A DNA stretch of 64,000 nt, taken from assembly GCA_008632985.1 (NCBI GenBank), contig QPGO01000067.1, forward strand, positions 1 through 64,000, given 5' to 3'. Numbering within the stretch: position 1 is the stretch's first letter; every line of letters begins with the position of its first letter. A program made the translations under genes and the position numbers. The notes under the pieces were generated by a model. That model had not been told where the DNA came from, searched no databases, and saw only the letters and a list, made by a program, of their open reading frames with translations. This document shows, piece by piece, positions 11,782 to 53,810 of the stretch. The stretch comes from Psammoneis japonica. Taxonomy: Eukaryota.

Positions 11782-12172
11782 GCCATAACCAGCTTGACTC
11801 GCTCTTTTGTGCCTGTGCGTGTCTTATCCATATACATCAGAGTTCTTCAGAATGTTCTCCGTATTCTCTATAAGTCATTTCAATGACTTATCCCAAACTG
11901 CAAGGTCTAACGAGATAAAGACTTCAGTGATAACAAAATTGTGAGCGAAAGACCGAGGTAACGAGGGTCGCTTTCAGCGAAGCCCGTTACAACGGCTTCC
12001 GTTATATCTAATAGGTTCATTAATACTATATATCAGAAAAATAAGGTGCGAGACACTGCACTCTTCCCTTCCATGATTCGAGTGTCGAGAATCATGCGGG
12101 ACTCAAAAAATTTAAATTCCAATGGATGAGGATAGAAGGGAAACCCAAATGTTGGGGAGAAAACCCTTAACC

Positions 12173-15100
12173 TCAGGTATGATGCGGTACGACGCGACGT
12201 ATATTCAATCGTTCTGTCACATGAGGTGTGCGTTGGACCGTAAGTGTGCCGTTGGCGTGCACTTGAACGATGGGACATGGACCGTGAGCTCGTGGCTCGA
12301 GCTTGGTTGGGTCGACAGCCTTGAGTAGAACTTGTCCGCCAACTTGAAAATCGCAGGATCGGCATTTAGCGTTGGCTCGATGGAGATTCGCATTGACAAT
12401 CGCTTGTCGGTGTTCTTGAATGGCAGCAAGATCGGCTGGGACCGGCAAGTCAAGAATCATGTCACGTTGAAAAACCACAGCACCGGGTGAAATCTTGAGA
12501 GCACGAGAAACCGCACATCGCATTGCATGCATGGCGGTTGCCAATGCATTGTCCACTAGTTGATTGGCCTGCTCAACATTCTGTGGAGGATAAACATGAA
12601 GCAAAGTGCGCAAGACATTTCCAACAGTTTGATGCATGCGCTCGCATGCTGCATTGGCTTGTGGATTTCGCGACGCAGTCGGAGCGTCTTCCACTCCTGC
12701 TCGTTGCAATGACAATTGAAAGTCCTCTCCAATGAATTCTCCACCATTGTCATGGATGCACCGGTTGGGACGAGGACAACGAGACAACCAACAATTTTCA
12801 AATTGTTGAGCAATGTGAGACGAGGTTTTGTTGTCGATGCGAGTGAGTTCAGTCACATTCGAAACGGCATCAATGCAAGTCAAAGCGTTGAATTCGATTT
12901 CATGGTTTTGAATTTCAATTTTCCAGGGACCGATGAGGTCAACCGCAACTTCCGTCCATGGCAACAAAGGCGCTTCCCGTTCAGGCAGGTCCCCACATCC
13001 AGGGCCCAAAGTTTTCAAACGTTGACAATCAGCACAATGAAATCTTTCACAGGATTGACGAAGGGCAGGATGACAGAAATGTGCGCCAATGGTGGAATGC
13101 ATTCGGTGCACTCCTGCATGTCCCAAAATCCTGTGATGCCATCGCATGATGTCATGCAGCAACGCCGTTGGAACACAAATTTTCCACGCAGTCGGAGGAT
13201 CATTCGGTCGAGCACGATGACAAATTACAGGACGCTGATTCACATGTTCCACAACGAAGCGTTCTGGATGTTGTTGTCGCATGTTGTTCAGCTCCACGTC
13301 GACGAATTGGTGTTCTTGAATTCGTTGCACAGTTGCAGGGTTTTGCATTTCCTCGAGAGAAGGACAGTTCAAAAATGATTCACACAATTTGGGGTCGTCC
13401 ACGACAGAAGAATAAAATGGAGATGGTTCTTCACGACGACAGGAAAAATGAGATGCGCTGTTTTGGTCGTCCAGTTCTTCTTCATGCGGTGGCATGGCAG
13501 GGTCGATCGTCTTAAAATCAATCAGCTTGCCCTTGTCAGGAGCACACTTCCCTTCCGCAGGAGGGTCCACACGCGGCAATCTTGAAAAACAATCCGCCAA
13601 GAGATTGTCTTTGCCATCAACGTATTCGAAAGTTGGGGCAAAATCTTCCAAGAAGAGTCGCCACCTAAGAACTCGTTGAGAATTGAGCGTGCGAAAGGTG
13701 AGATTTTTATGATCCGTAAAAACAGTGCAGTCAGCTCCAAATGACATGCTTCGAAATTCTTTGAAACACATCACCACCGCCAACAATTCTTTTTCAATCG
13801 TAGAGCAGTTCTGTTGTGCTGCGCTGAGTTTCCGGGACCAGCAAGCCACTGGTTTCCCGTCTTGCATAATTGCGGCTCCCATCTGATAGTCCGAAGAGTC
13901 AGTGTAAATGTGGAATGGCTTGTTGTGATTCGGGTGGACCCAAAGGGTGTCGTCCAGCATCAAGGTTTTCACATCTTCAAAGGCTTGTTGACATTCAGGG
14001 GTCCATTCCAACTTGCTCTTGCCTGTCAACTTCGTGAGTGGAGCGAGCACGTGTGAGCGACGAGGCCACATGTTGCGACAATGAGTTGCCGCACCGACAA
14101 ACGATCGTAGTTGCATCACAGTTTTAGGTGGTTGCATTCGCAGCACCGCTTCCACTTTCTTCTTCCACGGTCGGACTCCTGCAGGCGTGAGCCAATGGCC
14201 TAAAAAATCCGTCTCTTGGACACACCATTCGCACTTGAGTGGGTTAATTTTCAGATTGTTCTCTTCTAGTCTGGATGACAGCTCATCGAGTCGACGCATG
14301 TGAGTGTCAAACGAATCATCAAATTGAGCAATGTCATCAATGTAAGTTTCAACATCGATTCCTTTTGCCACTTTTTCAATGATGGCTTGAGCAACATCGG
14401 GAGAGGTTTTCAAACCCATGGCCAATCGACAATGTCGAAATTTTCCAAACGGAGCAACAATGGCACACAAATCCTTGGATTCTTCGTCAAGCTCGACATG
14501 ACAATAAAACACAGTGAGGTCCAACTTGGTCAAGCACTTGCATCCCGAGCGTCGGTGAACAACGTCTTGAATGATCGGCAGAGGGTGGACCTTTCGTTTG
14601 AGTGCCTTGTTTAACTCTCGAAAATCGGATGCCCATCGAACTCGTCCATCCTTTTTGGGAGTCACAAAAGTTCCGGCTGCCCATTCAGTTGGTCCCACTG
14701 GTTCCAGTGCGCCAATGTTACATGGATGTTGCAGTTCTTTCTTAAAAAACGGCTTCATCCCTCTTGGATGCTTCGCAAGCCTTAGAATGGAAGGGAACAG
14801 CGTTGGGATCAACTTCCAAGTGAACAGTCTCATGCGGACATTTGCCAAGCGTTCCATCAAAGAGGGTTTCATGCTTTTCAAGCACAGCCTGCAGCTCATC
14901 ACATTGTTCTTGAGTTGAGTGAGTTTGAGCTTGCGCCACTTTCGCGGATGATGCTTTCTCGTATTTGGCGTCCATCACAAAAGATTGTCCGAAGGCTTCC
15001 TCATCGTCTTCGTCCTCTCCGTCGTCTTCCAGTGTATCCAACCAATTCTGAACTGAGTTCCAATGATTGGATTGCTTCATTGGGATCGACGTTTCCAACC

Positions 15101-15656
15101 ACTTTGTCATTCCAAATCGAAAATCAAGCACGATTCCGGCTTTCGACAAAAAGTCTTGTCCCAAAATTAAATCACACTTGCATGGGGCATCAAAAACTTG
15201 AGCCGCAATGCTGTCGACTTGTTTTGACTTGTCAAATTCTGGCAATGTCAAGTCCTTCATAACAACGTGTCGGGAGGATTCATGTCGTCCGGCTGCCGTC
15301 TGAAAGCTCAACCGTCCTTCATCGTTCATGGTTGGATTTGCTCCCTTCGGCAAAACTCGAGAATGAACAAGAGTGTCAGCACCTCCTGAATCCAACAGCA
15401 CTCGCAACACTCGCTCACTCTCTTGATTTTGAATGGCACGCGCCGCCATCAACGTCGTTGGCACCACATTCAATGGCTCAGGAGTTGCAGTTTTAGGGGT
15501 TGGCACAGCGCACTCCAAAACGCCGCCCAATTTTTCTTCATTCACAGTGTGAGATTCCATCAGGTCTCCCACATTGTCATCAACATTAAAACACACATTT
15601 TCTTCACGATCACGCGAAACATAAAAAGATTGAGCGACACGCTCTGACTCGGGCAC
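12173..15656 (-). pseudogene. pol: Gypsy A pol (protease, RT, RNase H, integrase), frameshifted near 14750-14900
   Basis: LLDSGG; PKKDGRVR..DFRELN; YIDD; YTDSSDYQMGA; TDHKNL; H..GH..C..C; VDLIGP; DNGGEF; NPQAN..ERMH. Confidence 0.92.
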
Positions 15657-15668
15657 TTCCGTCCCTTG

Positions 15669-16914
15669 TCAATTGCGCCAACTTCGTTGGCCTTGATGGG
15701 TGTGACCGTTCTGATTGCATCCATTTCCACCTCGCATCTCACGAGGCCCTCCTTGATCAAAATGGTGCGACTCCATTTGCCAGCCACCAGGAGGAGCTGC
15801 TCCAGCCGGATTTCCACAGCCTTGGGTGTCACCGTTGGCTTGGGTGCCGTTTTGATTTTGGCAACAGGATCCATTCCCTTGAGAATTCTGGGAGTTGTTA
15901 CAATTGCCGTAACCTTGGCCTCCATGTCCTCCTTGATTGCCACAATTGCCACGTCCTCGACCTTGGAAGTTGCCACGACCGCCTTGACCTTGGGGTCCTC
16001 TGCCTTGGCAGTTTCCTCGGCCTCCACCACGACCTCCGCTACGACCGCCACGGTCGGACCTCGGTCGACAGTTTTGGCTTTCTGGATTCAAAACACAATC
16101 CTTCCACTTGTGGTCGTGATTCGCATGCACCGGGCATCTAGATTCTGGATCCGTTCTGCCACTGTTGCCACGAGAACGTCTTGAAGCTTGAGACGAAGCA
16201 CCATTGCTTTTCCTCTTCTTGTCCTGCTTCTTGTTGCCACTCTTGTCAGCAAAAGATTTCTCGTTGTTCATGCAACTGATGATCTCAGCAAGAGCATCGT
16301 TCGCTGTCGCTCGTCCTGCTCGAGCATGCATCTCACGCCACGGACGAGGAAAACTGTCGAATGTCATCTTTTTCTTCTGAGCTTCGTTGACTTGAGGAGC
16401 ATTTCCTGGAAGTTTGTTGGAGTGCCGAATCAAGGTTTCCATGCGATCTGCATGCGCCTGCACTTCAGATTTGAATGGGTTTTTCAAAGTCAGCAAATGT
16501 TCAATCATCGCATCACGCGCTTCATTGTCACAATAAGACAAGTAAAAACGATTAATTTCCTGATCAAAACGCTCGACAGTTTTATCGGCATTCGTCAATT
16601 GCATTGGTCAAGTTCGCCCACTTGTCCTCTGCAGCATCCGCAAGCACTTCCTCGAAATTTTCGAACAACTCCTCGCCAGCAGTGTGCTCCAATTTCACAG
16701 CAATTTTACGAAAACGATCCTCAACGAACAACAATGCTTCAATGCCATGAGCACCATCAAAACGCGGACACTTTTTTGTACGAGTGCTACCGTCATCATA
16801 CGATTGGGTCAATTTCACTTCCTCCAAGTCAGAATGCTCAAATTTAGCTTCACAGCTGGTGCAAGGCTCCTTCAACGATTCACTCATCATGAAAAAGGGA
16901 ATGCAATTGTTCAA
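15669..16914 (-). pseudogene. gag: Gypsy A gag-like ORF, frameshift at ~16590
   Basis: Lies upstream of the protease; CPVH-x4-H-x4-C knuckle followed by an RGG/N/Q-rich tail. Confidence 0.75.
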
Positions 16915-17581
16915 TGGTCCTCTCCAGGGACTCTACCTTTGACTCCAAATGATGCACTCGGCTCGCCAAATTCTGTTTGTGTCGTTTACGTTGTTGCACT
17001 TGTTTCTGGTGCTCAATGGCCCAAACTGCTGCTCTTGCGCGTGGTTCTCTTTTCTCACGTTTGGTCAATTTGTTTGCATTGTTCCCAGTCTCCATCCAGT
17101 TCTTTGAATCGACTGTAATTACAGTGCAAGGTCTAACGAGATAAAGACTTCAGTGATGACAAAATTGTGAGCGAAAGACCGAGGTGACGAGGGTCGCTTT
17201 CAGCAAAGCCCATTACAACAGCTTCCGTTATGTCTGACAGGTTCATCAATGCCACACGTCAGAAAAATGATGTGCGAGACACTGCACAAACAACACAAGT
17301 CTTTCCAATGACTCATTGTGTGTGTCTGGGTTCGGTTTCTGATCACTGCTTCAAGCACTGCGTTCCACACATTTCACAAGATCTCCGAGAGAGTGGCTCT
17401 GAGAGATCTGTTCTATCTCGTCTCACAATTCGAGCATCTAACAGCACAACATCTACATTGTCAACTATCTCCTGGCGCCATTGGGCACAGCAAATTTACT
17501 CCCCATCTAAATCCAACTTGTTCTTTGCTTCTGCGAAGCCCTCATTGTCGACAGCAAGTCTGGCGAATTGCCCTGACCTAA

Positions 17582-20500
17582 CATGTCAGCTGAAAACTGT
17601 CCTTTCCATCTTGTTCGCCCGGAACGAACAAGCGAAGAACATCGCAAAGATCGTTTTGTGTCTTTCGAGTCTCCAGTCGACCCAAATGATCCTGATGGAC
17701 TCAAGTCCACCATAGAAGTGCGTGCATTGGACAGTGATGACCCTGAAGACACTCTCGCTTTCTTCAAGCGTTGTGAAGAAATCTCTGCTGTCCTCAACAT
17801 TGCAGAGGGAATTCCACGTTTCCGTCCAATCAACCGCCTTTTGACAGGCCAGCCGATGGATGACTGGAACACTGTCATCGATCAGCACGAAGATCGAGAT
17901 CAAGACACTTTTCTTGCGGCACGCGAAGATTGCACCTTGACCAAGATGACCCGCGACATTGCGGCAGACACCAAGGATTGGCTGCAGTCCCTCAAGAAGC
18001 CACGCAATGACACCGTACAGTCATTTCTTCAACGTGTCCGCCAGATCCACGATCTCATCCCATTTGTGCCCTTGCCAACGGACGAAGATGTTGTTGATCC
18101 AATTCCGAAGTTCGCGGAAGCGGAGCTCGTCGTTGTCATCAGAAAATCCGGTCCCAAATCATGGATTCATGACCAAACCAAGGCCAACATTCGAGGATTG
18201 GGCCTCAACCAACAGGTCCAGTGCTGTGAAGGCTTGCGATGCATCGAGCCAAACAATCCTCGAGACAATTCTGGCGGGAATCGCCGGAACAATCGAAACA
18301 ATTCATCCAATCGTCGTGGTGGAAACCAGACGAATCGCAATGACAGGAATCAAGGTGCCAGTTCCAACAGAAGAAATCAACAGTCAAATGACACATGTCC
18401 CACACATGGTGTTGTGCATCCCGGTGGAAGGGAGTGCAACATCATTCGCCGAGAACGCAAACAGCATCAACATAACCGCACCAACCGCGGTCAACAACAG
18501 CAAGGCTCCAACCGCAATCAGAACAGTCAGAGGACTCAGCCAAGTCATCAGTGTGATGCAAGGAGCCATTCTCGTCTTCCAGAAGAGAACAATCAGGTTC
18601 AGAATCAACCTGCTCGTTCGACACAGGTTCGACTCCGCTCGAATCCGAACGACGCTGATGGCGCATCGTCACAAGACATCAACGAAATCTCCGACATGTT
18701 TGAAGAGATGAGTGCCACTCAGGAGTCCCAATTGAAAGTGCCGGACCCTGCATTGACTGCGGAAGCGACGACTCAGTTTCTCAATCGCGAGACAGGCCAA
18801 CACAAATGCTGTCTTGGCCTGCTCGACACTGGAGCGCGTGGCAATTTCGTCAAGCGTGATGCGCTCAAGTCCATTCCTCATTCCATCAAGACTGTGGATG
18901 CAAAAGTCAATGGAAGACACAAAGCAGTCAAATCTTCGCAGCTTGCCACTGTTGAAATCAAGCTCCCAGAATTTACGAGTGCAAAAAAAGCATCTGTTGA
19001 TGCTCACATCGAAGAGAAGGCAATCGGGCGCCATGACATCGTTGTTGGCCGCCGAACGTACCAAAGCCTTGGTCTCATCTTCAATTTCAAGACCAAGAGT
19101 GTCACATGGGACGATGTTGCCATTCCCATGCGTCCAGAAGGATCAATGGATCGAGACGAAATCACAAACATTGATCCTGCCGATGCAGCTTTGCCTGATT
19201 TTATGCTAGCTGCCATTCAACGTCAGACTCGTGCCATTTCTAGCAACGAGTGTGACAAGCATGACTGTCAGAAAATGGCATCGGAATGCAACCATTTGAC
19301 TGAAAGTCAAAAAAGACGACCTGTTGGAATTGTTCGGTCGCTGTCCCAATTTATTTGATGGAACCCTCGGTGCAGTTCCTGGTCCTCCGATCAAACTCCG
19401 AGTCAAGCCTGGCTCTGAGCCTTGTTGTGCCAGGGCTTGCACCACACCTCAAGCCCTTTGTCCCATCGCAAGAAAAGAAGTCGATGAACTTGAAAACATT
19501 GGCGTCATTGCTCGCGACATTGCTTCCGAGTGGGGCGCGCCATGTTCACTCCGACCAAAGAAAAATGGCGGAGTCCGTTTCTTGACCGACTTGCGGTGCC
19601 TCAACTCATGTCTCATTCGCCATCCTCATCCAACACCAAATCCTGATGATGTGATTTGGAAAATCAACGGATTTGCGCACGCCACTTGTTTCGATCTCAA
19701 CCGTGGCTACTGTCATTTCGCACTCGACCGAGAGTCGAGCAAGCTCTGTGCTGTCATCTTGCCGTGGGGCAAGTGTTGCCACCTTCGACTCCCTCAAGGA
19801 GCCATGCCTTCGAGTGACATCTTCCAAGCCTTTGTCAATCGACACTTTGGCGACATGGAAGACACATGTGCTTTCTTCGACAACATTCTTTTGTTTGCAA
19901 AATCAACTTTCGCTCAGCACCTCCAACGAATCAAGCTCGTGCTTCGTCGACTCGATGAGAGCAACCTTTGAGTGCACATTGAAGGCACTTTTCTTGCTGC
20001 TCCTGAGGTTGACTTCTCAGGGTGTCACATCACGAGAAAGGGTGTCACACCTCAGAAGGAAAAGATCATTCCCATCCTTTGTTTTGCTTCTCCCAAGAAC
20101 AAAAGTCAGCTCAGATCGTTCAATGGGTTCGTCAATTTTTGTGAGAAGTTGTGGCACCGCAAGAGCCACACCATGGCACCTCTGTCGGCTGTGGTTTCTC
20201 CTAAAATCAAGTTCAAGTGGACCGATGCCGAAGAACAAGCTTTTCAAGCTATGAAAAAAATTGTTGCTCGCCAAGTTCTGTTGCGCTTCCCTGATTTCGG
20301 TCGCGACTTCCATGTCTATGCCGACGCGAGCGATTGTCAACTCGGCGCCGTCATAACTCAGACATTTGAAGATGGCGAGTGGCCCATTGCATTCTACAGT
20401 CGTGAACTGTCCAGAGCTCAACGCAATTGCACTGCCATGGAGAAGGAATTGCTGTCCATCGTCGAAACAATGAATGCGTTTCGTAACATCCTATTTGGAT

Positions 20501-26409: not shown

Positions 26410-26519
26410 AAAGAAAGACAAAATTCTATATTTTAAGTGCTGCTCGAACTCCACTCGCCACTAGCTCCAAGCCGGCCCACACTCCCAGTACACCGAAGTG
26501 CGGCAGAAGTAGTTGTGGA

Positions 26520-31360: not shown

Positions 31361-31393
31361 GAGAAAACAGCGGGTTAGACGACTGGGCCCACC

Positions 31394-33046: not shown

Positions 33047-33140
33047 GGCGACGGCTGCTTGGTGCACAAAACGCGTAGAATTCCACGTAGAACTCACTAA
33101 TGTGTGCTTACGTAGAAAAGTAACTTTGCCCTTGAAGGTC

Positions 33141-42478: not shown

Positions 42479-45400
42479 TGATGTGCACATTTTAAAAATC
42501 GAAAATTCCCAAGATTTGATTCCAGGAATCTTGTCAAAATTCGATTCTTGACAACGCACGTGACTCGCGCTCGTGGATTTTTGGAAATGCCCATTCTTGA
42601 GAGAATCCCCCCCCCCTTCATTTTCAAAAATGCATGCCTTTCATTTTCGAAAATGCCGTGCTTGCTCTCCCGAGCAATGCAGTCCACACAAACTTTGTGG
42701 CAAACACCATGAACAATGATTGTCTCAACCACATTGTGCGCTGTTCGAACGTGATGCATTCCATCACAAAAGTGGAAGGGGGAACCCAAACCACATCCAA
42801 GATGCTGACACAAGAGCAATTCCATCACATTGAACACCTTCTTTCACATTGTGAGTCTGGAGATGCAGCAGCCGGACTTGATGTCAAACAATGGCGATGC
42901 AAGCACCCTGAATGGAGCCAGACATCAATGAAATGTTTTGTTCATGACAGATTGACGTGTTGCCAAGATGCAAAGGTTTGCTGGCCAAAGGACAAACGTG
43001 TCATCCATGAACTCATGTGCTTTGACATCATGTTGCAAGCTCATGAGATGGAAGGCTGTCACCGTTCCATCAAAGCAACATTCAGCCATTTGTCCAATGA
43101 TTGCTGCAACACAGCTGCCAACATGGTTTGCGTTTTTTGCAATCATTGTCCTCATTGCATTTCTCTGAAGTCCAAGAACAAAAAGTTTGCATCCATTGTA
43201 AAAGACAGGGGGAAATTGCAATGCTTCGCAGCACCAGTTTGCAACACCCTTTTTTTACAGCTGTCTTGAAGATTCCCACTTTCTGAGTCACCCGACGACT
43301 CCCGTGACAAACTCAATTTGTGCACTCTTTTCATGGAACTCACTCTCATTGGCAACATCACCACCACTGCTTTGTGCTGTTTTGTTGTTGACAACCATGC
43401 TTTGTTTCTGTTTAACCCACACTCAGCCATCTGGCAAAATGCGTCATTCAGCAACATTGTCACAACAATCCCTCGGAGAGCAAAATTCTTTGTCGTCTCC
43501 CAACAAACTTTCAGCCATGACAGAAGAGAAGCATCACAAACACTGTTTTCTAGCCAAGGCTTTTGGCATGGATGAGGTGGGCAGTCCTTCCACTGCCAAG
43601 ATGTCCAAGGCATTGACGGAAAAGGAGCACGATCACATCGTCTGCTTGCTTGATCACATCATGGACATGGGTGACATTGAGAAAGGTCTTGACGCAAAGC
43701 AGTGGTGCCGCAAATGTCCCAAGTGGCACCACATGAATGACAAGCACTGTGTGGAGCATCCTCAGGAGGGTCCTTCACTGTTGTTTTGTAAAGGAGAGGA
43801 AACGCCCAAACAAGTCATTCACCAGATGATGTGCTTTGACATGCTCAAACAAATCCACTCATTGTCCAGTCACAAGAAGGTGGCATTCACTCATGCTGTT
43901 GCACAGGACAAGCACTTTAATGTCACCCAAATCATTGTGAAGGCTTTCATCAACACTTGCCCACAATGTTCTTTGAAGCAGCCATGGGCTCCAAAGCAAA
44001 AAGGGGCCGTTCATTCAAAAATGGTGCTGCTCAAACATGGTGCAGTTAGGAAGACTGTCTTTTTTGCAGCGACAGCAATCAATCATCCACAAGGGCAAAA
44101 TCCCAACCTCTGCTTGAATGCCCATTGAATGGTTCAAAAACAAATCACCACATTGCAGCAAAAAGACAGCAAACTTGTTCAGAATTTTCTTGTGCACCCT
44201 GACAATGTCTTTGTTTTTGGGCTTCTTTGGGTTGTCCCTCCACACTTCCATCACTTGCACCAAGCTTTTTGCAGCTGCATTCACTCCACTCCTCTCTGGT
44301 GGGCAACCCAGGCCTGGCCAACCAAGAAGAGCATCACAATGGGGTGCCTGGTGGGTTTCCAGTCTTGTTGATGTCAACCATTGGTTTGCACATGGCATGT
44401 CCAAATCCAAAAGCATCGTCAGGTGGCTCGAACCAAGACACAGACAGCATGACCATTTCAGTGGCACCAAAAAAGCAGGACTTGTGTGGATGCAACTCAA
44501 AGCACATTTGCACAGACACAATTTGAGGCAGTGCAAGTGAGTGCTTGTCAATGAGTGCAACAATGAAGTGGAGAAAAACCTGGTGATGGCCTGTTGGCTC
44601 CATGTTGCGTGCAACTCGGTGTGCATCAATCCCGGCACATCCCTTGAATTTCTCCAAGTTGGCAAAAAGCAGCTCATGATCAACGCACTTCAGATGATCC
44701 GGCAGGTCTTGGTGTGCTTGGATTGCATGTGTCATCAGTGGCAGAGTCATTTTGATCTGCCATGCAGAGTTGTCCACTGACGACCTGGAACATCCAACAA
44801 CAGTGTTTCTCACATTTCCAAAATCATCAATCCCCAAGACGGATGGCACGGGTGCCATGGGTTCGTTGTTGCTGTTGTGGTGGTCAGAGTGACAGTCAGA
44901 GAAGCAATCAAATGCATTGATGAGGCAGCACAGGGCCTTGGTCTTAATCTCTTGCATTGCACCCAGCAAAAGGCAAACAAAATCTTCAACTCAGTTGGGA
45001 AGTTCTGGATCAACCCAAGGGTTAGAAGTGAACTTGGGTTGGAGAGTGTCCATGATTTGAGAGAGAATCAAAAAGAATGCCATGGCTTCCTTTGTGCCCT
45101 TCTGTTTGCATGGCCTTGCAACACCATTGGCATGTCCCTTCCTTGTGGTGCTTGTGTTGGTGATTGCACGGCTGATGGTGTGTTCCTGTCTTCCCCATTT
45201 CCAAACATTGAGACTCTCTGTCCTTTGGTTTTTCATGATGTTTCTTGATGAGTTTCTGTGAATGATTCCAGTCTGCTCAATGTGTCAGGTGTTGTTGGTG
45301 AAAAGAATTGACAACCACGAGAAAGCATTTGGAATGATCTCTGTCAATGTTGTAGATTGACCAGACAGTGGATGTGTCATTGGATCCAAGTTCCAAAGCA

Positions 45401-47600
45401 AGGTTCACAGTGTTGTCTTGGCAGTGGGGAACGTTGGCTCTGCAAGGCAAAGACACCTGCAATGGAGACTGAAATGTGACATGACAGCAGAAAACACATT
45501 TTTCTTGGTGCTTTGGAGACAGCCAGCCAAGGTTGTTGATTGGCTTGTCCTCGGAAGAGTCATCGTTGAAGCACTCAGGGCAGACCTCTTTTAAAAAATA
45601 AAAACAATGTTGAACATGCTCTCCTCCTTAAACACCTTTTCCCTCAACGAGGCCTTGGACAGTCCAACTTTCTCTCAACAGCACAGGTGAAAGTGTTCCT
45701 GCTGGGCATTTTAGCTGGTGCACCAACAGAAGATGAAGATGACACTTGAAGCCAATTAGAAGGTTTGGATGTGACTGAAGAGGTGGAGTCAAGGCTGGCA
45801 GACTGGACCAGGGAAGATCTTGTGCGGCAAGAACACCAGAGGTTCCAATGTGTCCGATGAGGCAGATTCAAAGCTGAGAGACCAAGACCTGTTAGACCAG
45901 GACTTGTGGGACCTGGCGCAACAAGACACAGGAGGTTCCAAGACATCTGAATGGGTGGAGTCGAAGCTGCGAGACCTGGACAGAGAAGACCTGGTGCAGT
46001 GCAACACAGGGCTGCAACTCCTGCTGCAGAACTTTCCATGCAGCATGTGTTCGTTTGCAGGAATCCCTTGAGCAATTGCATCCACAAGGAGATGGGAACA
46101 GGAACACAAACAAGGGCTCTGGTTGGGAACTGGTGCTGCCGACAGAGACAGCAACATTGGGAGGGAGAGCAGCCACCAGAACGATGCCCAGTGGTGGACC
46201 AACTGGAGAAGGCAGACTCATGACTGGCCCCAGACCAATGCCTGCTGGCACTCAAAGAGAACAGTGGCAGTGCGGAGAGCAAGACCTGCACCTGTGGACC
46301 TGGAGCAAGAATGAGACCAACACCTTGAAATTGACCAGGAGCAACATGACCAAGAGCAGTGTGCAGAGCGTGACCATGACATGGACCTCAACCCAGAACT
46401 GGTGTGGGGTGAGTGACAAGTGGAGGAACAACCATGACCACAATCTTGACCACGAACCATGCCACCACTGTGATGACCAGCAATGGTGGGAGAAGAGGGG
46501 GCTTGCCTGGAAGAGGGTTTCTTGAAGGGACGGCCCTTTCCCCTGGAATGCCGAGTTTGCTTTTTTGCAGTCAATGCAGTCATGGGGGCATGCACAGGTG
46601 CCCACTGAACTGGTGCTGAAGGGAGTGCAGCACATTGAATTAACTGTGCTGGAGCCAGAGGCTGCAACGGTGCAGGGGGGGACGTGATGGTGTGGCTGCG
46701 ACAACGGCGATGGAGCAGCAACGGAGTGGCAGGCTGCAACGATGCAGTGGGAGCAATGCAATGTGGCTGAGACAACGGTGACAGAGTTGAAGGCTGCAAC
46801 AATGCGGTGGGAGCATGACAGCATTGCTGCAATGACCGCAACAGAGCGGCAGGCTGCAATGATGCAGTCGGAGCATGACAGCATTGCTGCAACAACAGCA
46901 ACGGAGCTGAAGGCTGCAATGATGCGGTCAGAGCATGACAGTGTTGCTGTGACAACAGCAACAAAGCTGAAGGCTGCAATGACATGGTTGGAGATGAATT
47001 GGTGAAAATTCTTGACAGAAAGTCACGGCCAGGCAATGAGCTGCAATGCCATGATGAATGTGCAGAGCAATGCGGTGATCGGCAAGGATGCTGTTCTGGA
47101 GAGACATCATGGCAACAAGCAGACCCACCACATCCATGATGGGGTGAACAACAAGGACAACACACAGGGAAGTCATTGCGGATGTGACATCTTGATTGTC
47201 TGGCAGAGCAATGGAGAGAGGAGGGAGGTGAGAGGTCAAGACCTCTTGACCAAGGTGGAGCACCACTGTCACCTCTCACAAGATGCATGGCGTGAAGCAG
47301 GCAGATGAACAACAGTTGGTGCTGACAGTGTGGACAGAAAGCAACAACAAAAAGGCTCGCGGTGGAGTGAGAAAAGCAGCGATGACCATGTTGCTTTCTC
47401 TTTTGTGTTGGATGTGATGAGCTGGTGGTTGCGTGGTGTGCCCAAAATGACTGTTAAATTTGTGCCAACGTGCAACAATGACCGTCACCAAATGGGCACG
47501 ATCAAAGATTCTCAAAAAATGATGGTGTCATTTTTTAAAATGACCATTTTGGGGAATGCTGATTTTTGAGAATCCACGTTTTCGAAATTCCATGCAACAC
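42479..47600. mobile_element. ~5.1-kb insertion in intron 4 of the dead LRR copy, with two tandem degenerate HHCC integrase zinc-binding modules (Ginger/KRBA2-like)
   Basis: Host sequence breaks after gtaagtcatc and resumes at gcccttg. VIHELMCFDIMLQAH..H..T..VFCNHCPHC (~43000-43160) and VIHQMMCFDMLKQIH..H..T..AFINTCPQC (~43810-43970). Confidence 0.6.
46718..46985. repeat. 60-bp minisatellite, about 4.5 copies
   Basis: AGGCTGCAA at 46731, 46791, 46851, 46911 and 46971. Confidence 0.88.
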
Positions 47601-48184
47601 TTTGCCCTTGATTTCTGGCCCCTCCACTTTCATTTCCTTTGACTTCAGTTGCAGCCGCAAATCTCATGGCGTCCCTTTTCTCATGTTGTTGTCCTTCGCA
47701 GATTGCCTTGACATCCAAGACAATGACTTTGCACTGCCGTTTACGTGTCCTGGGTTCACATTGACTTGCTGGGTTTTGAGCGAAGATCCTTCAAATGCTT
47801 CCTGTCGGGAACTCCAACAGTTGTCACGTCATGTTGATTTTGGTCCTTCCGGCAAGGATGCAATGGTCACCGCATGAGTGCAGGAGGCATTGTTGCCAAT
47901 GCCATTGCACTCAACTTGCATCAAAGAGCAAAACATGCAAAAAGAAACAAAACAAGGCAAACAAGAATGACACGTGGTGATTGACAGCCGCTGTGCCCAA
48001 AACAAGATTGAGCTTGAAAAGGGCGTCACCCTTGGCTTGTCTTTCTGCGCAACGACAATCTGTTTTTTTGCAAAGCACCAAAAAACCAGTTTGCTTGTCT
48101 CCTTTCCTTGCAACATGTTCTCTCCACTGATTCAATGCGCATCCCATCTTGGGATCCTCGCTGCACAGACTCAATGGTTTTGTC

Positions 48185-51100
48185 TGACAGACATCCGAGA
48201 TGATGGGGAGCACACTCCCTTGTGTCAGACAGACTGGCACAGACAGCATGGAGAGATCCGATGATCTCTCCTTTGCTCACTTTCTTTCTCATCCAGTGCA
48301 CGATTGTCATCTGTCCCAGACATGCATTAGATTGTCCCGATGCCACCAGCCCATGAGGTCATGAGCAGCAGTGCGCTGTTCCTCTTCCTCTGTTCTCCTC
48401 TGTCGCAATGCCCGCTGTGTGATTTGGCAATTTTTCATTGTTGAAATCGTCATCATTGTCACAGCTGTTTTTTCGCCTCTCGATTTTGTGATCAGACGAC
48501 CACTGTAAAACACATGCCAGAGCTCTGTGCAGGAATTTGATTTTTTCCCGTGCAACCATGGTGAACAAAACCCCAAGTGCCATCGATTTGACCAAGATCA
48601 AGACGACACGGGTTGAATTCAGCCCACATGATCTCTTGCCCAATGCACGCCGTCACCTGAATGCTCTTTATTCTGATGAGACACCTGCTCCTGAAGATCT
48701 TCTGGATGGATTCACTCCTCAAGGCCTCAAGAGCAATGCTGTCACTGTCCTCCGTCGTGAGATCCTTCACAATCTCATCATCCCCCAAGCTGCCCTGACT
48801 GAAGATCTTGCGTGCATCGGACCGATCATTGAAAAGGCCCCTCTCTTTGTGGCCATCCCTCAAGACTCCCCAGTTCATCTGAACCTCAGTGCTCTTCAGA
48901 AGGCCATGATCAAAGTGATCTCAGAGAACGATGACACCACAAAAGCACACACTGGGACTTTGCGTTTCCATTTCAGCCCTGGTTTTGGCATCATGATTGC
49001 TGGGATGATGTCTCAGATGATCCACATCCGGACCCAATGCCTGCTTCAAGTTCTGCATCCCCGCCGGTTGCTGCTGCAGGTCCTGCTCCTGAAGACTTTG
49101 CCAAGGCCTTGGCAACTCATTTGCCTGGTCCAAACGAGCATGGGCAAGCCATGACTGATGGGTTGAAGAGCATTTCAAGTTCTCATGCATGTGCTGAGTC
49201 CAAGTCATGCCCAGTTGCTGGGTCCACTGCTTGCAGCTCTGATGCTGCTGTTGTTTCTCATGTTGAAGATGCGCTCACTGTGGACACTTGGATGGATCCC
49301 ACAGATGCCAACTCCTTGAATGCCAAGTCTGCCATGTCTGTTGTGGAACCTGTGGGTGAGCCACCTGCAGTTGTTGATGCTGGATCCCTTGCATTTCCTG
49401 CCAAGTCGTCGGCACTTCCCGAGAATGTCCATGCCTGCCTGCTCAAGACCCCGAAGTTTTTTGTGTCTGGCGGCCCCATTGTTTTGCACAATGGCGGTCA
49501 CATTGGTCCATTGGATGGTTCATGCTGCATCACCAAGGTCACCCATGAGCTGCTTGATGCCTCTGTGGTGCCTTCGCATGATGCGCATGACACCCGTGGA
49601 CACAGCCACAGCTCTGTTGGTTGTCAAGTCGCTTTGTCTTTGGATTTTTGGCTTGGCTGTCGTCAATTTTGGATGTGCGGTGCCGCCATTCCTTCCACCA
49701 TCCAAACAAGACCAATGGGAGCAGGGCAGTTTTATGAAAGAGGGCCACGGAGTCTTGCTGCCTTCTTCCGCTGTTCTGCAGAATTCTCCATTGCAAGGAC
49801 CGTTGTCGTGTCTGAAAGTGCTTTTCATGGTGCTCCAGACCTGTCCACCATTGCTGACGATGATCCTTTGATTCCTGATCAGGGGGAGGGCACAATGTGG
49901 CACAGAGGAAGTGTGCAAGATTGATCAGCACGCAACAGCCTCCACTGGAAAAATGTTGGGTGACCAAGATTCGCACGTCACAGAGAATTCCACAACCACA
50001 CGTCATCTTCTTCCAACAATGAAGCACTCCAGGCTGCACTCTGTTTGCTTGCTGAGCTTGGAAGTGGGGTGACCCTGAAAGAGCGCAACTGAGTCTCACT
50101 GCCTCCCATTGCATCACTTCTGTCCTTCACCGTCAGGACCATTGTTGCTTTGAATGGCATTTTTCCTGTCACCCCCGACCTGTCGACCATCCCTGATGAT
50201 GACCCTGCATTTTTTTGATCAGGGGAGGGATTCCCACAACCTTGAGGCCCAGCAGAACTCCAAAATCCTTCGCAACGAGCTCCCGACATTTTTCTTTTAC
50301 CAGGCATGTGACAATTGCACATGCAAAAACACATGGATCCGACATGTTTGCTCTGCAAGTGCCTCGAAAGAGGACACAAGTCTGCGACAAATTTACGCAG
50401 AAATGTGCGAAAGAAAAACCCGGATTTTGGGACATGTTTGGGACATGGCTGGGCACAAGGATGATGCAGAGGAAGCATGTCAGGCTGTTGAGAATTCTGC
50501 TTTCCACCAAAACACCTCACACTTGACGATCGCGTTTTGAACGCCGTGCGATGCTCACCTCCAATGCGTCACTGTTCTTTTGACATTGAGCGACTTTACG
50601 ATCCATTTTGTTCTCCCAACATGTTTTTCAGGGGCAACACAAATGGTGGTGGAAGCATTGGTTTGTCAGGTGGATTGTTGTTGCTTCATTTTCACCGCAT
50701 CATCCACCATGGTGGATTTCCATTTTTTGGCCCTGTCTCCTCCAATGAGTTTTGGCGACAGTGTGACTCACCAGAATGTCTCTTTGCTGCCAATCATTTG
50801 TGGATTGACAAAATTCTTCTTTGGTGCACAACTCAATTTATCCAAAAGATTTGTTGGGACTGCCTTTGACATTTTTTGTCAAAGACCGATGCGCTGATCT
50901 CGGGACGGATGTTTTTTGTTCCCAACATGCTCGTCGCTTGTCGAGATGTTGTCGTTGATTGTTGTCGTGTTCGCAGACCAAGTCTTGGCCATTTCTTTTG
51001 GTGCTCTTATTTGTTTTTTGCTGCTCTGGTCCTCTCTTTCATTCGGATTGTCTCTTTTCTTTCTTGATGAGCTTTTGCATTGCTCATCAGGGGAGGGTGA

Positions 51101-51266
51101 CAGACATCCGAGATGGGGAGCACACTCCCTTGTGTCAGACAGACTGGCACAGACAGCATGGAGAGATCCGATGATCTCTCCTTTGCTCACTTTCTTTCTC
51201 ATCCAGTGCACGATTGTCATCTGTCCCAGACATCCATTGGATTGTCCCGACACCACTGGCCCACAA
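48185..51266 (+). mobile_element. 3.1-kb non-autonomous LTR element, ~170-bp LTRs (48185-48356, 51098-51266), with a gag-like ORF remnant and no recognisable pol
   Basis: Near-identical direct repeats starting TGACAG; PPT aggggaggg before 51098; PBS-like GGTCATGAGC at 48357; TSD-like TTGTC/TTGCC matching TTATC in the live copy. Confidence 0.85.
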
Positions 51267-52621
51267 TTGCCAATCCATTCTTGTTCCTTCATGGGAAAAT
51301 GCAGCGGCTGGAGTGGGGTTTCTGTCATTGGAGCCAGTCGCCGGCCTTGTCTTTGACGCACTGGGCACAGCAGAAGAGCTGCACCTCCCTGACATCCTCC
51401 TTGCTTCATGGCATTGGCAGTCTTCAAGATCCAAGCTTGTCCCCTTTGCAATTCAGACATTGTGTTGGCACTCAGTGCAATGTTCAAGATGTGCTTCAGA
51501 TTCATCTGATGCTTGGTCATCAAGCAGAGAGTTGAAGAGCCTGATCAGCAAACAAAGAAGAAGCAGCACATGAGAGGAGGCAGCACGGAAAGAGCTGCAG
51601 GGGTGGGAGCAAAGAATGGGTGCACAGGACAGCACACGGGGTGTTTTAAAGAAGGGGCAGGAGATGCATCAGTGCAGCCAAAGTTTGAAGAGAAAGTGGA
51701 GAGCATGGGCAGAAAGATGATGAACAACGTTGCAGCTGAGAGTTTGGGTGGCCCAATGAGAAGGAGCAGAGGAGTGGCAAGAGGAGCCAAAATGGTCAGC
51801 AGTGATTTGATGCCAGGCAAAGTCAGCCGAGCACAACACACAATGCATGGCGGCCAAAGTGAGAGCATGAGAGAAGGCAACATGGGAAGGGTCAGAGCCT
51901 TGGAAAGCAGAGGACCAAGTTAGACCAGGGAGGCTTGGGCTGGGAGCAGAGACCAGGGGGGAAGGAGCCAAAAAGGAGTCGATGGAGAAAGAAGCCAAGA
52001 CCACCAAGGTGATCAACAGGAAAAGGAAGGAAGAAGATCCCATCATCACAAAGAAACTGAATGGTGAGGGGGGAGAAGCCATTGTTGGAAGAGGAGGCAG
52101 CAGGTCCAAGAAACTTCAACCTCATGCTTGCTTTGTGTGCTTCAGTTGGAGCTGGACAAGAAGGGTCAGGCAGACCAGGAAGAGGGTGAGGGGGAGCTTT
52201 GGAAATGGTGACATCACAACAGCAATGCAGTGATGATGGGAAGGGTGGCAATGGAAGCAAGAGGAGGAGTGGTGATGCCAACATCAGCTGGGCAAAGGAG
52301 GGGGCAGTTCAGAAGGAGATTCACAGGTTCAAGATGAACGTCGCCAGGGTGTGTGTTGCACAGTTCAGCAAGAGGACCCAAGGTTTGGGTGATGACAAAA
52401 ACTGCATCTCGGATGCCGTTGGACAACAGGAGCCCAGATTTGTGGTTGCCTTTGCAAGCAAAGGCATGATCACTGCAGGTGTTGAGGGCAGCATGGCTGC
52501 AGGGGCACGGGGTGCCAACAAGCAATGGAGGCAGCACAGGGAGGCAAAGCTTGCGTTGGGCAGCAATGGTGCACTCATCAGAAGCAATGTGAGTGGCATG
52601 GGAGCAGTGGGAGAATGAGCA

Positions 52622-53810
52622 AAGTGGGAGACTGGTGGTGAGAGGAGACAGAAGGGAAGGCAAAAAAGAGCGCATCTGCCACATCAATGACATGGATGAA
52701 ACCAACAGACTTTCTGCAGCCGAAACACTGCAGGACTCAATTTTGTGTTGACACCTTCTGCACCATCCAGGCAATCTGCTAAAACACGTGACATGGTTCG
52801 ATTTTGACAGGAATGGGCAAACTCTGTGATCCAGTGTTTGTCAAAGCTCATGACTGAAAAGTTTTATTTCAGTCTTGCCTTTGCTGCATGTTTCAGCAAA
52901 AGCTGAGTCGTGCATGACCAACAATGCACGTTTCAGCAATTTCTGAAACCTGCTGCATGTTTCAGCAGACTCTGCTGCAACCTGCCATGTTTCAGCAATT
53001 GCCAATGCCAACTGCATCAGATGCCCATTTGGGGCCCACATGTGGGCCGTAAGATTTTTTTTTGGCCCATGTGAGGGCCGCAAATTTTTTCAAATCTTCA
53101 ACGACAGAGACAGCTCATGAACAGACCCCCCACAGTCAAATTTTCCACACCCGAAAACACAGGAATCGGCACTCCAGCTGTTAAAAAAGTCCCACTGGTT
53201 GTTGTTGTGGCCTCTAAAATGTGCTTGCATTTTTGCGCAATTTTCCGCCAATTTCTCCCTCCACCATGGTGGACCCTGGGCTGGCCCCGCCGGTGAAGGA
53301 TGTTTGCTCCAGCAACCTTGGACACCTGACAACCTCATTGGGGAAATGCCAGATGTGTCAGAATTGCTTGCAGTGGGAATGGACATGCCTTTTTCACTTG
53401 TTCAAGACATGCCGCGAAACCCGGAATTGCACTCTGCTGCCAAAGCACCCTCTGCTCCCGCACATGCCCCCCCTCCAAGTCTTCCTGTGGAGCCACCAGT
53501 GTGGCCAAGAGAGCTCGGGTGCAATTCAGCTTTGCCAAACAAAAGTTGATTGTTTCTGACATGAAGCACTTGCATCCTCAATGCCAGCTGCTGCACTCCG
53601 CAAAGGAAAGCATCGCCGGGGCATCAACGAAGGTGTGGAGTCAGCCATCTGTCTTGTTTTTGTCCCGAAGCAAGTGCTGGGAGACTGGTGGTGAGAGGAG
53701 ACAGAAGGGAAGGTAAAAAAAAATGCATCTGCCACATCAATGACATCGAAACCAACAGGCTTTCTACAGCCGAAACGCTGAGGGACTCAATTTTTGTTGG
53801 CATCTTCTGT
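52622..53810 (+). repeat. ~140-bp direct repeat (~52622-52760 and ~53672-53810) at the right border of the repeat domain
   Basis: gggagactggtggtgagaggagacagaagggaagg..ggactcaattt occurs twice. Confidence 0.85.

Follow-up and report, generated by a model that had tools for sequence, protein, structure and literature searches.

Loss of TpA by probable targeted hypermutation in retrotransposon blocks of diatom nuclear DNA

How can blocks of nested retrotransposons lose nearly all of their TpA dinucleotides when the genes beside them keep theirs? This question is raised by the 64-kb stretch of nuclear DNA analysed here (the window), which belongs to a diatom or a near relative and contains two such blocks plus a stray copy of a host-gene segment (Table 1). 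In 2-kb windows, the observed/expected ratio (o/e) of TpA was 0.48-0.71 in genes. It dropped to 0.01-0.03 at 1-4 kb, and between 12 and 53 kb to 0.03-0.27, except for 0.38-0.64 at 23-26 kb. Pooled flanks (17,402 bp) held 709 TA (o/e 0.600; TG 1.16, CA 1.18), whereas 371 were found in the 41,501 bp of 12250-53750 (o/e 0.139; TG 1.49, CA 1.57) and 7 in 1-4900 (o/e 0.021; TG 1.85, CA 1.82, CG 0.073). Tyrosine made up 1.0-3.1% of residues in six flanking ORFs but 0.0-0.7% in nine ORFs of the depleted domain, and 2.2% in the ORF of a Copia "island". The original prediction, that TA has been replaced by TG or CA across a 42-kb domain and 1-4.9 kb while the flanking genes have normal TA and Tyr contents, is therefore borne out overall, except that 23750-26700 is mutated only in part. 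This 3-kb island is confined to one Copia gene and is a counterpoint to an account based on hypermutation.

Table 1 Features of the 64-kb window, with domains assigned by Pfam search of ORFs
Feature	Position	Strand	Remarks
Left hypermutated block	1..4900		TpA and CpG nearly absent; continues past window start; Pfam domain in 0/3 ORFs tried
Left flanking genes	5000..12200		Ordinary TpA and CpG; TA o/e 0.46-1.01 per 250 bp
Intact (ancestral-state) copy of 3.7-kb segmental duplication	6834..10564	+	Self-BLAST; includes LRR-type gene 7486-8691
Unmutated edge repeat copies (85 bp + 163-bp LTR)	11814..12061		TA o/e 0.81-0.87
Gypsy-type LTR retrotransposon, 163-bp LTRs	11899..17287	-	LTR pair; interior TpA-depleted, CpG retained; RVT_1, RNase H and integrase in 12173-14974, protease in 14742-15668
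Second Gypsy-type element, 201-bp LTRs, TpA-depleted	17287..22195	+	LTR pair; RVT_1 19300-19971, RNase H 19972-20505, integrase 20506-21711
Block between 256-bp direct repeats	22469..35375	-	Copia pol (RVT_2 and gag-pre-integrase in 22746-26432); APE-type endonuclease ORF (Exo_endo_phos in 30397-31200); long ORFs without assignment (26520-30932, 31394-33658, 33659-35092: no domain above Pfam cut-off; 26520-30932: no match among PDB sequences)
Less-mutated island in Copia pol gene	23750..26700	-	TA o/e 0.39-0.86 per 250 bp
Older hypermutated block	35500..53750		TA o/e 0.03-0.09, CG o/e 0.21-0.49
Mutated duplication copy, part 1	40159..42478	+	Matches 6834-9154 at 84% identity
Insertion splitting mutated copy	42479..47603		Between self-BLAST-paired blocks; 60-bp tandem repeats at 46716-47017; no Pfam domain in ORFs tried
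Mutated duplication copy, part 2	47604..48184	+	Matches 9155-9727
Short element within mutated copy, ~169-bp terminal direct repeats	48185..51263		Repeat pair 94.7% identical
Mutated duplication copy, part 3	51275..51838	+	Matches 10007-10564
Right flanking genes	53800..64000		Ordinary TpA and CpG; TA o/e 0.48-0.71; zinc-ADH-like, RING finger and NDH2-type oxidoreductase (the last 45-60% identical to diatom proteins); also a 749-aa ORF

Mapping of TpA o/e in 250-bp bins, by which edges are resolved to one or two bins (250-500 bp), placed the borders at ~5000 (0.18 to 0.96), ~12250 (0.87 to 0.14) and ~53750 (0.06 through 0.40 to 0.54), and TA loss ends at the edges of the repeat blocks as anticipated. 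The predicted domain start at 11814 is indeed a block edge, but TpA o/e falls only at ~12250, and the onset of depletion therefore lies ~430 bp inside the repeat block. Gypsy and Copia elements are both affected; the LINE also listed by the original prediction has the endonuclease domain as its sole basis.

The fate of TA sites was followed in the 3.7-kb duplication by pairwise alignment, and the direction of change was tested with outgroups. The intact copy has 124 TA, of which the embedded copy retains 8 and shows TG in place of 52 and CA in place of 49; only 3 sites go in the reverse direction. The two outcomes (52 vs 49) show no run structure along the copy, and both strands are used equally. 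A>G affected 103/245 adenines in TpA but 70/1505 of the remaining adenines (ApA 18/548, CpA 32/485, GpA 20/472). At 15 informative differing codons, the homologue consensus is matched by the intact copy in 12 and by the embedded copy in none. In alignments with homologues, conserved-Tyr columns of the Gypsy element (n=22) hold Y in 5, C in 7 and H in 6, and those of Copia (n=32) Y in 10, C in 13 and H in 4; within Copia, the island (n=22) has Y 10, C 8, H 2 and F 2, and the 3' part of the ORF (n=10) Y 0, C 5 and H 2. These data indicate that TG/CA arose from ancestral TA in Gypsy, Copia and the duplicated host gene, in agreement with the predicted A to G change at TpA on either strand, a non-TE gene copy included. 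By the genetic code such a process can take away stop codons (TAA and TAG) but can make none; it also converts Tyr to Cys or His and erases TA-rich signals. The elements are therefore disabled through missense changes and lost signals, not through nonsense.

Five LTR-type pairs (874 columns) contain 44 differences, 38 of them at former TA sites: 23 are TA paired with TG or CA and 15 are TG/CA doubles, and the remainder comprises three CG/CA, one TA/CG and two transversions. TA changes are thus enriched over other transitions, of which there are none in these columns. The 201-bp LTR pair (17287..22195) differs only by 8 TG/CA doubles and 2 sites with TA against TG or CA; the 256-bp direct repeats (22469..35375; 95% identity) have 8/8 differences derived from TA (4 doubles, 4 singles); and the ~169-bp repeats (48185..51263) show 2 TG/CA doubles, 1 TA/TG, 1 transversion and 3 gap columns. 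The expectation that LTR pairs, gene duplicate and border repeats would all be of the TA type holds in general but not for the border-repeat pair 52625/53678, where 2 TA sites stand beside 6 other transitions, 3 CpG sites and 1 transversion. Because the LTRs of one element differ at TA sites, mutation postdates integration and acts on DNA, as had been proposed. In the repeat pairs we infer ~61 ancestral TA sites, with 0.68 mutated per lineage, and the TpA rate is about 10^3 times background, a ratio that rests on just two background substitutions.

CpG follows a different course. Its o/e is 0.03-0.11 at 1-4.9 kb and 0.21-0.49 at 35.5-53.75 kb but 0.72-0.97 at 12-35 kb, and in young repeat pairs 3/34 CpG sites differ as against ~53/61 TpA sites. 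These data indicate a separate decay of CpG that is slower and present in the older blocks only, and a TpA rate well above it. Methyl-CpG decay by deamination of 5-methylcytosine likewise turns a self-complementary dinucleotide into TpG and CpA; however, it acts at CpG and is the slower process here, and 12-35 kb has lost TpA yet kept CpG.

The limits of hypermutation are sharp and are set by position rather than by sequence family. The edge repeats at 11814..12061 contain 7 + 15 TA against 1 + 4 in their inner paralogues at 21915-21999 and 17125-17287 (22 vs 5 in all), and TA stands in the edge copy at 16/16 TA-type differences. On the other side of the balance, related elements do not share the signature as a rule: Tyr-poor members number none of 120 Gypsy homologues and one of 120 Copia homologues, and among 79 metagenome loci a single one is TA-poor. 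The process had been called RIP-like, but induction by repeats is not supported, because one copy of the duplication and the edge repeat copies are spared, the inner paralogues being mutated. RIP in Neurospora and other fungi also consists of dinucleotide-specific transitions that cripple repeats and spare neighbouring genes. In contrast to the present case, it changes C to T at CpA and so makes TpA, mutates both copies of a duplication and makes stop codons, whereas here TpA is destroyed, one copy is spared and stop codons are removed.

The motif is wider than TpA, with a pyrimidine preferred 3' of the A, and therefore RTAY is lost first and TTAA last. From genes through the mid block to the old block, RTAY counts are 229/17/0 and YTAR counts 114/69/40 (chi-square p 5e-25), with ATAT at 70/0/0 and TTAA at 27/22/21; the 68 TA in the 23,151 bp of 1-4900 and 35500-53750 include none in RTAY context. 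In the duplication pair, A>G occurred at 66/130 TAY and 37/115 TAR (p 0.004), with TAG (15/51) below the other three 3' contexts, and within-site competition at RTAR and YTAY sites (41 vs 26) showed a modest TAY preference. In addition, A>T at TpA is raised (11/245 vs 16/1505, p 5e-4) and A>C is not, which fits bypass of an abasic site where a damaged A has been removed and points, weakly, to an adenine lesion.

Targeted, DNA-level hypermutation of TpA to TpG/CpA in the repeat blocks is the best explanation of these data and a reasonably probable one, and adenine deamination is its favoured, though tentative, chemistry. The A:T to G:C changes at TpA of either strand within the two retrotransposon blocks would arise if a TadA/ADAT-like deaminase turned adenine into hypoxanthine, a base that pairs with C, as proposed for the chlorarachniophyte Bigelowiella natans. 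The limits would follow chromatin state, silent repeats being mutated and genes and a probable promoter at the block edge being spared, which would tie the process to silenced chromatin. As foreseen, Pfam searches of ORFs found no candidate mutator gene within the 64-kb window. Polymerase-eta-type synthesis (WA to WG), another candidate of the original prediction, is not supported, because ApA is spared (A>G 18/548 against 103/245 at TpA).

That prediction knew of no described pathway of this kind, but TpA-erasing hypermutation has a single earlier report, from an unrelated alga, and is found here in a diatom, on retrotransposons and a gene copy. The main text of the B. natans preprint (Mettrop et al. 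2026, 10.64898/2026.01.13.699255) describes de novo TpA to TpG/CpA changes at ~1000 times baseline and proposes ADAT-type deamination. The likeness extends to changes that are almost only A:T to G:C and always at TpA, confined to bounded stretches of foreign DNA with normal genome next to them; to long-term TpA loss with CpA/TpG gain, TpA-poor coding sequences there being enriched in reverse-transcriptase and DDE domains; and to a mutator enzyme that is a candidate only, ADAT2 being the one proposed there. The host here, however, is a diatom-like stramenopile rather than a member of Rhizaria, and the targets are LTR retrotransposons and a duplicated host-gene segment rather than a giant-virus/virophage insert. 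TpA o/e is 0.02-0.14, near saturation, against 0.45 in the NCLDV region of B. natans, and the window holds a fossil record of mutation in place of de novo events. The wider RTAY/TTAA motif, the extra A>T and the relation to CpG do not appear in the main text of that preprint, from which the word "context" is absent.

Since TpA is self-complementary, A-to-G and T-to-C on the opposite strand are inseparable, and chemistry at adenine and at thymine both stay under consideration. The sequence data would fit equally well an attack on thymine, in which a TET/JBP-type dioxygenase carries T through 5-hydroxymethyl- to 5-formyluracil in silent repeats and fU:G mispairs turn RTA into RCA; we regard this as unlikely, although it has precedents. 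In dinoflagellates, a different lineage of SAR, 5hmU is the product of a TET/JBP thymidine hydroxylase; this thymine-directed modification is repeat-enriched and reportedly silences TEs (PMC11572971, in part). In Crypthecodinium, work of the 1980s assigned most 5hmU to TA and TC (PMC11071213, in part), and 5-formyluracil mutates chiefly A:T to G:C via fU:G mispairs, so that oxidised thymine can give T to C (PMC7051996, in part). Dinoflagellate 5hmU is, however, a modification and not a mutation signature, and the base-resolution map in Breviolum, as presented in the section used here, has neither a sequence preference nor a TpA rule. In the window TpC is spared (TC to CC in 3/216 of the duplication pair), and an abasic site would account for the raised A>T more readily if it lay at A rather than T. 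Neither 5hmU nor a TET/JBP enzyme is known to us from diatoms.

Untargeted damage at TpA, for instance a TA photoproduct caused by UV or some other lesion, could be fixed where repair is poor in compact silent chromatin, with no dedicated enzyme. This would suit a photosynthetic alga exposed to light, domain limits that coincide with gene/repeat transitions and the minor A>T component. It is improbable, however, given a contrast of ~10^3-fold and the TA o/e of 0.8-1.0 kept by untranscribed spacers adjoining genes; repair usually differs only few-fold between chromatin states. Near-pure transitions and a strict dinucleotide rule point instead to an enzyme, and the process in B. natans is active in some lines only, according to the main text of the preprint.

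It is very improbable that the loss is an artefact, with TA still present in the DNA and the TpA of repeats carrying a modified base that sequencing or polishing reads wrongly. Modified bases do cause systematic long-read errors, and neither the window nor run X1 has a recorded library type. Nevertheless, the TA-poor sequence recurs at depth 52-66 (gene flank 57.9) in contigs of run X1, which were built from exact 31-mers and may come from the window's own source sample; one of them, at single-copy depth (41091-41865), is identical to the mutated gene copy over 776 bp. A symmetric modification would yield clashing strand calls rather than uniform TG or CA. Ordinary divergence of ~5% is present in the mutated gene copy too, as expected of old DNA, and the same TA-poor signature occurs in L064, a metagenome contig independent of the window. 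The mutations of B. natans, moreover, were called from Illumina data, according to its preprint.

ADAR-like A-to-I editing of retrotransposon transcripts that are then reverse-transcribed into DNA is scarcely credible, even though the majority of targets are retroelements and ADARs favour 5' U (Discussion of 10.64898/2026.01.13.699255). The LTRs of one element differ, so the change came after integration; a non-retrotransposed gene segment is mutated too, and both strands are equally affected. ADARs favour 3' G, whereas TAG is the lowest A>G context here. They are also metazoan, as stated in that Discussion. Footprints of ADAR (RNA) and of APOBEC C-to-U editing (cDNA) resemble the present case as editing-type retroelement hypermutation with a neighbour-base preference, but they arise before integration and on one strand, whereas here mutation came after integration, on both strands, and in non-retroelement DNA as well.

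The reverse reading, namely RIP-like CpA to TpA change in the gene copy, or elements born TA-poor or avoiding TA under selection, draws on the fact that pairwise comparison alone gives no direction, but is contradicted for the window and hardly conceivable there, given that outgroups put TA (Tyr) as ancestral, the replacements are the non-conservative Cys and His, LTR pairs diverged after insertion and the flank TA o/e of 0.60 is ordinary, not raised. For L064 this reading may hold: its 1082-aa ORF is intact with no TA and few CpG, and Tyr is replaced by Phe at 9/19 conserved columns, which looks like evolved TA avoidance in that single element.

The original prediction that TA dinucleotides are lost from the repeat blocks while TG and CA are gained was confirmed by composition. 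The pooled gene flanks (17,402 bp) contain 709 TA with a TpA observed/expected ratio (o/e) of 0.600, whereas 12250-53750 (41,501 bp) contains 371 TA (o/e 0.139) and 1-4900 contains 7 (o/e 0.021), and the o/e of TG and CA rises from ~1.17 in the flanks to 1.5-1.85 in the depleted blocks. The TpA borders at ~5000, 12250 and 53750 are each sharp within 250-500 bp (one or two 250-bp bins). Within the window, the depleted blocks consist of Gypsy, Copia and other insertions, and the neighbouring genes are normal; nine ORFs from the depleted part contain 0.0-0.7% Tyr, versus 1.0-3.1% in six flanking ORFs. CpG o/e is 0.03-0.49 in the older blocks (1-4.9 kb and 35.5-53.75 kb) and 0.72-0.97 in the younger block (12-35 kb). 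Because the younger block has lost TpA yet keeps CpG, the loss of TpA is independent of that of CpG.

Judged by homology, the flanking genes are nuclear and belong to a diatom or one of its close relatives. The best matches of an NDH2-type oxidoreductase ORF (57485-59041, minus strand) share 45-60% identity with it, the named ones coming from the diatoms Seminavis, Pseudo-nitzschia, Cylindrotheca and Nitzschia, and matches of the Copia and Gypsy proteins include Nitzschia and Epithemia elements as well as many environmental contigs. A LINE had also been predicted among the affected elements. Its endonuclease domain (Exo_endo_phos) is indeed present, but no reverse transcriptase was detected, and searches of ORF 26520-30932 against Pfam (E up to 1) and PDB sequences found none. 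The minus strand of 26520-35092 carries three successive long ORFs (1470, 754 and 477 aa) with one in-frame stop between the last two; none of them has a domain above Pfam's cut-off, and the first (1470 aa) has no PDB sequence match. The sole ambiguous base of the window, one N at position 31099, lies in the endonuclease ORF region.

Mobile elements and duplicated host sequence in the window
Feature	Position	Strand	Basis or content
Gypsy element, 163-bp LTRs	11899-17287	-	Domains and LTR pair
Second Gypsy element, 201-bp LTRs	17287-22195	+	Domains and LTR pair
Block bounded by 256-bp repeats	22469-35375		Contains Copia pol, endonuclease ORF and long ORFs
Copia pol	22746-26432		Inside the 22469-35375 block
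APE-type endonuclease ORF	30397-31200		Exo_endo_phos domain; inside the 22469-35375 block
Older block	35.5-53.75 kb		Holds a three-piece copy of host segment 6834-10564
Pieces of the host-segment copy	40159-42478, 47604-48184, 51275-51838		Split by two later insertions
One of the two insertions splitting the host-segment copy	48185-51263		Own terminal repeats
Host LRR-type gene	7486-8691		Within the intact copy of the host segment

Outgroups were needed to establish the direction of change, as pairwise comparison alone cannot separate TA-to-TG from RIP-like TG-to-TA. At the 22 columns of the Gypsy pol in which Tyr is shared by at least 70% of 60 homologues, the window has Tyr at 5, Cys at 7 and His at 6, and other conserved residue types are each retained in 55-100% of their columns. 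Similarly, the 32 conserved-Tyr columns of the Copia pol hold Tyr at 10, Cys at 13 and His at 4. For the host LRR-type gene, a consensus built from the 150 best of 9226 homologues (175 aligned stretches) agrees with the intact copy at 12 of the 15 informative differing codons, with the embedded copy at 0 and with neither at 3; these codons include TAC to TGC, TTA to TCA and CTA to CCA. These outgroup states from Gypsy, Copia and the host gene indicate that TA is ancestral and TG or CA derived, and therefore a reverse RIP or an inborn composition is unlikely. In contrast to fungal RIP, which changes C to T at CpA and raises TpA, the window has lost its ancestral TpA (o/e 0.02-0.14). Moreover, RIP mutates every copy of a duplication, whereas the intact copy at 6834-10564 is spared here (TA o/e ~0.6, matching the homologue consensus), as are the edge repeat copies.

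Comparison of the two copies of the duplicated segment further defined the specificity. Among the 124 TA of the intact copy, 8 are kept in the embedded copy, 52 have become TG, 49 CA and 11 AA or TT, and only 3 sites show the reverse arrangement (TG in the intact copy, TA in the embedded one). Counted per adenine on both strands, A>G occurred at 103/245 TpA (0.42), 18/548 ApA, 32/485 CpA and 20/472 GpA. The WA-to-WG synthesis by polymerase eta that had been proposed as a candidate would also affect ApA, and these rates exclude it. C>T was found at 119/343 in CpG versus 55/1233 elsewhere, and the 174 CG ended as 62 TG, 58 CA and 41 unchanged. As TpA and CpG are each singled out in the per-base rates, two separate dinucleotide processes have acted, and the features of methyl-CpG decay, namely CpG to TpG/CpA change with low CpG o/e, are present in 1-4.9 and 35.5-53.75 kb. 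The duplicate also contains 20 CA|TG doubles; mutation of the intact copy was rejected as their source, since ~18 are expected from two-step paths in the mutated copy (CA to TA to TG, or CA to CG to TG; arithmetic from per-base rates).

Both LTRs of one element are identical when inserted. Across five LTR-type pairs (874 aligned columns), 23 sites are TA in one copy and TG or CA in the other, 15 are TG|CA, 1 is TA|CG, 3 are of CpG type and 2 are transversions, amounting to 38 TA-derived events and 0 other transitions. At each TG|CA site, an ancestral TA was changed on one strand in the first copy and on the other strand in the second. When three short and less clean pairs from the older block and the border are added, the eight pairs give 27 TA singles, 24 doubles, 8 CpG sites, 9 other transitions and 8 transversions; in a control tandem-repeat pair within a gene, 5/19 differences are of TA type. 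From the five pairs, ~61 ancestral TA sites were inferred, with 0.68 mutated per lineage and ~1.1 events per site, and CpG changed at 3/34 sites. The TpA rate is near 10^3 times background, to be read as an order of magnitude only since it rests on 2 background substitutions. TG and CA outcomes follow one another no less randomly than in shuffles (35 runs vs 37.4, P = 0.33), so strand-coordinated tracts were rejected, and the spacing of surviving TA is no more uneven than in the gene flanks. The substrate is thus integrated DNA, whose two strands are affected equally and show no long same-strand runs; this rules out editing of retroelement RNA. ADAR-type editing would precede integration and follow the sense strand only, whereas the LTR pairs differ at TA sites and the non-retroelement segment has changed on both strands (TG 52, CA 49), making RNA editing an unlikely origin of the pattern. 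The earlier interpretation is partly right: it stands as regards ancestral TA and DNA-level change on both strands, on the evidence of outgroups, LTR pairs and the duplicate, and polymerase eta (A>G 18/548 at ApA) is among the parts that fall.

The limits of the process are set by position and not by sequence family. Repeat copies at the edge (11814-12061) retain 22 TA versus 5 in their inner paralogues, and the embedded copy alone of the duplication is mutated. Depletion begins ~430 bp into the repeat block. Immediately upstream of the minus-strand ORF 11251-11823 is the spared stretch 11824-12250; this edge, possibly an LTR, may act as the promoter of that ORF, which could explain its escape. 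In addition, a 3-kb island in the Copia gene (23750-26700) is half mutated, with Tyr at 10 and Cys or His at 10 of 22 conserved-Tyr columns, versus Tyr at 0/10 at the 3' end of the same ORF.

The TA that survive are non-random in context, the RTAY, mixed and YTAR classes differing across regions (chi-square p = 5e-25).

Tetranucleotide contexts of TA by region
Context	Genes	12-35 kb block	Old blocks
RTAY	229	17	0
YTAR	114	69	40
ATAT	70	0	0
TTAA	27	22	21

In the polarised set, A>G occurred at 66/130 TAY versus 37/115 TAR (p = 0.004), the A before the pyrimidine being the changed one. Indeed, CTAC/GTAG sites favour this A by 13 to 1, competition being weaker at RTAR and YTAY sites (41 to 26), and Tyr codons (TAY) in the two pol genes became Cys at 20 positions versus His at 10. 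The rule is therefore T-A-Y with adenine as the target or, equivalently, R-T-A with thymine as the target. The natural site of TadA is U-A-C, and ADARs favour a 3' G; these site preferences may serve as a lead. Reading the strand of the targeted A from tetranucleotide gains in the blocks was dropped, being confounded by ancestral element composition. A>T is also raised at TpA (11/245 vs 16/1505 elsewhere, p = 5e-4), and A>C is not (4/245 vs 23/1505). An abasic site at adenine, with A inserted opposite, would yield A>T, and one at thymine would restore T; the A>T excess thus weakly favours a lesion at adenine.

Taken together, our data demonstrate a transition process that works at the DNA level after integration, is specific for TpA(Y) and is limited by position; it may be carried out by an enzyme guided by chromatin state. 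For the chemistry, we give adenine deamination somewhat less than an even chance; in its favour are the A>T by-product and the preference of tRNA-type deaminases for a 5' T, both of which fit. Oxidation of thymine by a TET/JBP enzyme is a serious rival, albeit an improbable one. Such enzymes are reported to mark repeats in dinoflagellates (PMC11572971), older work describes 5hmU in TA and TC contexts (PMC11071213), and 5-formyluracil is reported to yield mainly A:T to G:C changes (PMC7051996), but TpC is spared in the window, where 3/216 TC changed. Damage combined with poor repair is an unlikely cause of the changes.

A sequencing artefact is likewise unlikely. In one public sequencing run (X1), 0.83 of the 31-mers sampled from 36001-46000 are present, and its contigs cover the old block at a word depth of 52-66, compared with 57.9 in the gene flank; one contig is identical to the mutated gene copy over 776 bp (0 other letters). 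This agreement is not fully independent, as X1 may be the source sample, and two further runs contained next to none of the stretch by 31-mer sampling. Among the 40 differences between window and X1 listed for 36001-56000 (201 more exist), ten cluster at 41872-41922 and probably represent a paralogous gene copy, and the other 30 comprise 17 CpG-type, 6 TpA-type and 7 other sites. The differences may be allelic variation made by both processes, hinting that both are recent enough to be polymorphic; the 6 TpA-type sites among the 30 are a weak hint of recent activity.

A comparable composition is rare among relatives of the elements elsewhere. Among 79 metagenome loci with Copia pol relatives (median TA o/e 0.60), one locus of 4263 bp (L064) has a TA o/e of 0.02 and a CG o/e of 0.11, the next lowest TA o/e among the remaining 78 being 0.43. 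It has no DNA similarity to the window, its 4 remaining TA lie in TTAA, TTAG and CTAT (twice), and it keeps a 1082-aa ORF with Phe at 9/19 conserved-Tyr columns. L064 may thus be an element with evolved avoidance of TA and CpG rather than a decayed copy. Among the 240 listed homologues of Gypsy and Copia, one protein alone is Tyr-poor (1/120 Copia, 0/120 Gypsy), a Copia homologue on a 66-kb contig (P0331); with 1.2% Tyr and Cys at 12/26 conserved-Tyr columns, it is probably another hypermutated copy. No Copia relatives were found in viral_contigs.

To our knowledge, the cytosine-directed systems, fungal RIP and animal APOBEC, are the only targeted hypermutation against mobile DNA known in detail. 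The first report of a TpA-directed A:T-to-G:C process dates from 2026 and concerns a single chlorarachniophyte, Bigelowiella natans (10.64898/2026.01.13.699255); our literature search on TpA hypermutation, including diatoms and retrotransposons, returned this preprint as the sole report and none on diatoms. In mutation-accumulation lines of B. natans, the preprint describes 231/302 mutations as lying in integrated giant-virus and virophage regions, all of them at TpA and all but one A>G or T>C, at ~6e-7 per site per generation, ~1000 times baseline, in some lines only; it also describes TpA-poor coding sequences as enriched in reverse-transcriptase and DDE domains and proposes an ADAT2 homologue as the enzyme (10.64898/2026.01.13.699255). 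Its main text mentions neither diatoms nor sequence context (10.64898/2026.01.13.699255). The window shares with B. natans near-exclusive A:T to G:C transitions (here in five young repeat pairs), changes at TpA that give TpG or CpA by strand, and delimited foreign or mobile regions in a normal neighbouring genome. The ~1000-fold rate in B. natans compares with ~1.1 events per TA site versus 2 background substitutions in 874 columns here. The same kind of process is thus recorded in a second, distant algal lineage. New relative to B. natans are the saturation, the retrotransposon and host-gene-copy targets and the motif detail.

The presence of this process at saturation in a diatom-like genome means that it is confined neither to one species nor to viral inserts, and provides a second lineage for a comparative search for deaminases or dioxygenases that carriers share and non-carriers lack. 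Testable details are the preference for TAY/RTAY, the resistance of TTAA and the minor A>T by-product, and a sequence-specific DNA adenine deaminase working in chromatin, if that is the enzyme, would be of interest to base editing. More speculatively, and less likely than not, a chromatin-guided DNA editor reading T-A-pyrimidine might be an old genome defence of SAR algae (Rhizaria and stramenopiles), perhaps wider, as a counterpart of RIP and CpG methylation. A few million generations would suffice for it to clear silent mobile DNA of TpA, and some elements would have answered with TA-free genes, as the intact ORF and Tyr-to-Phe changes of L064 may show.

From the genetic code and the context counts, such change never creates in-frame stops; it removes TAA and TAG, turns Tyr into Cys or His and erases TA-rich signals. 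Because TAA and TAG are removed, ORFs of 933-1470 aa persist in the younger block. The window holds 81 stop-to-stop ORFs of 150 aa or more, mostly in the blocks and up to 1470 aa, and gene finders will annotate the many long ORFs, false or fossil, that fill mutated repeats of this kind. Two tandem arrays were also observed, one of three 138-bp repeats (9627-10075) inside ORF 9638-10192 and one of four repeats spaced by 60 bp (46716-47017) in an insertion splitting the mutated gene copy.
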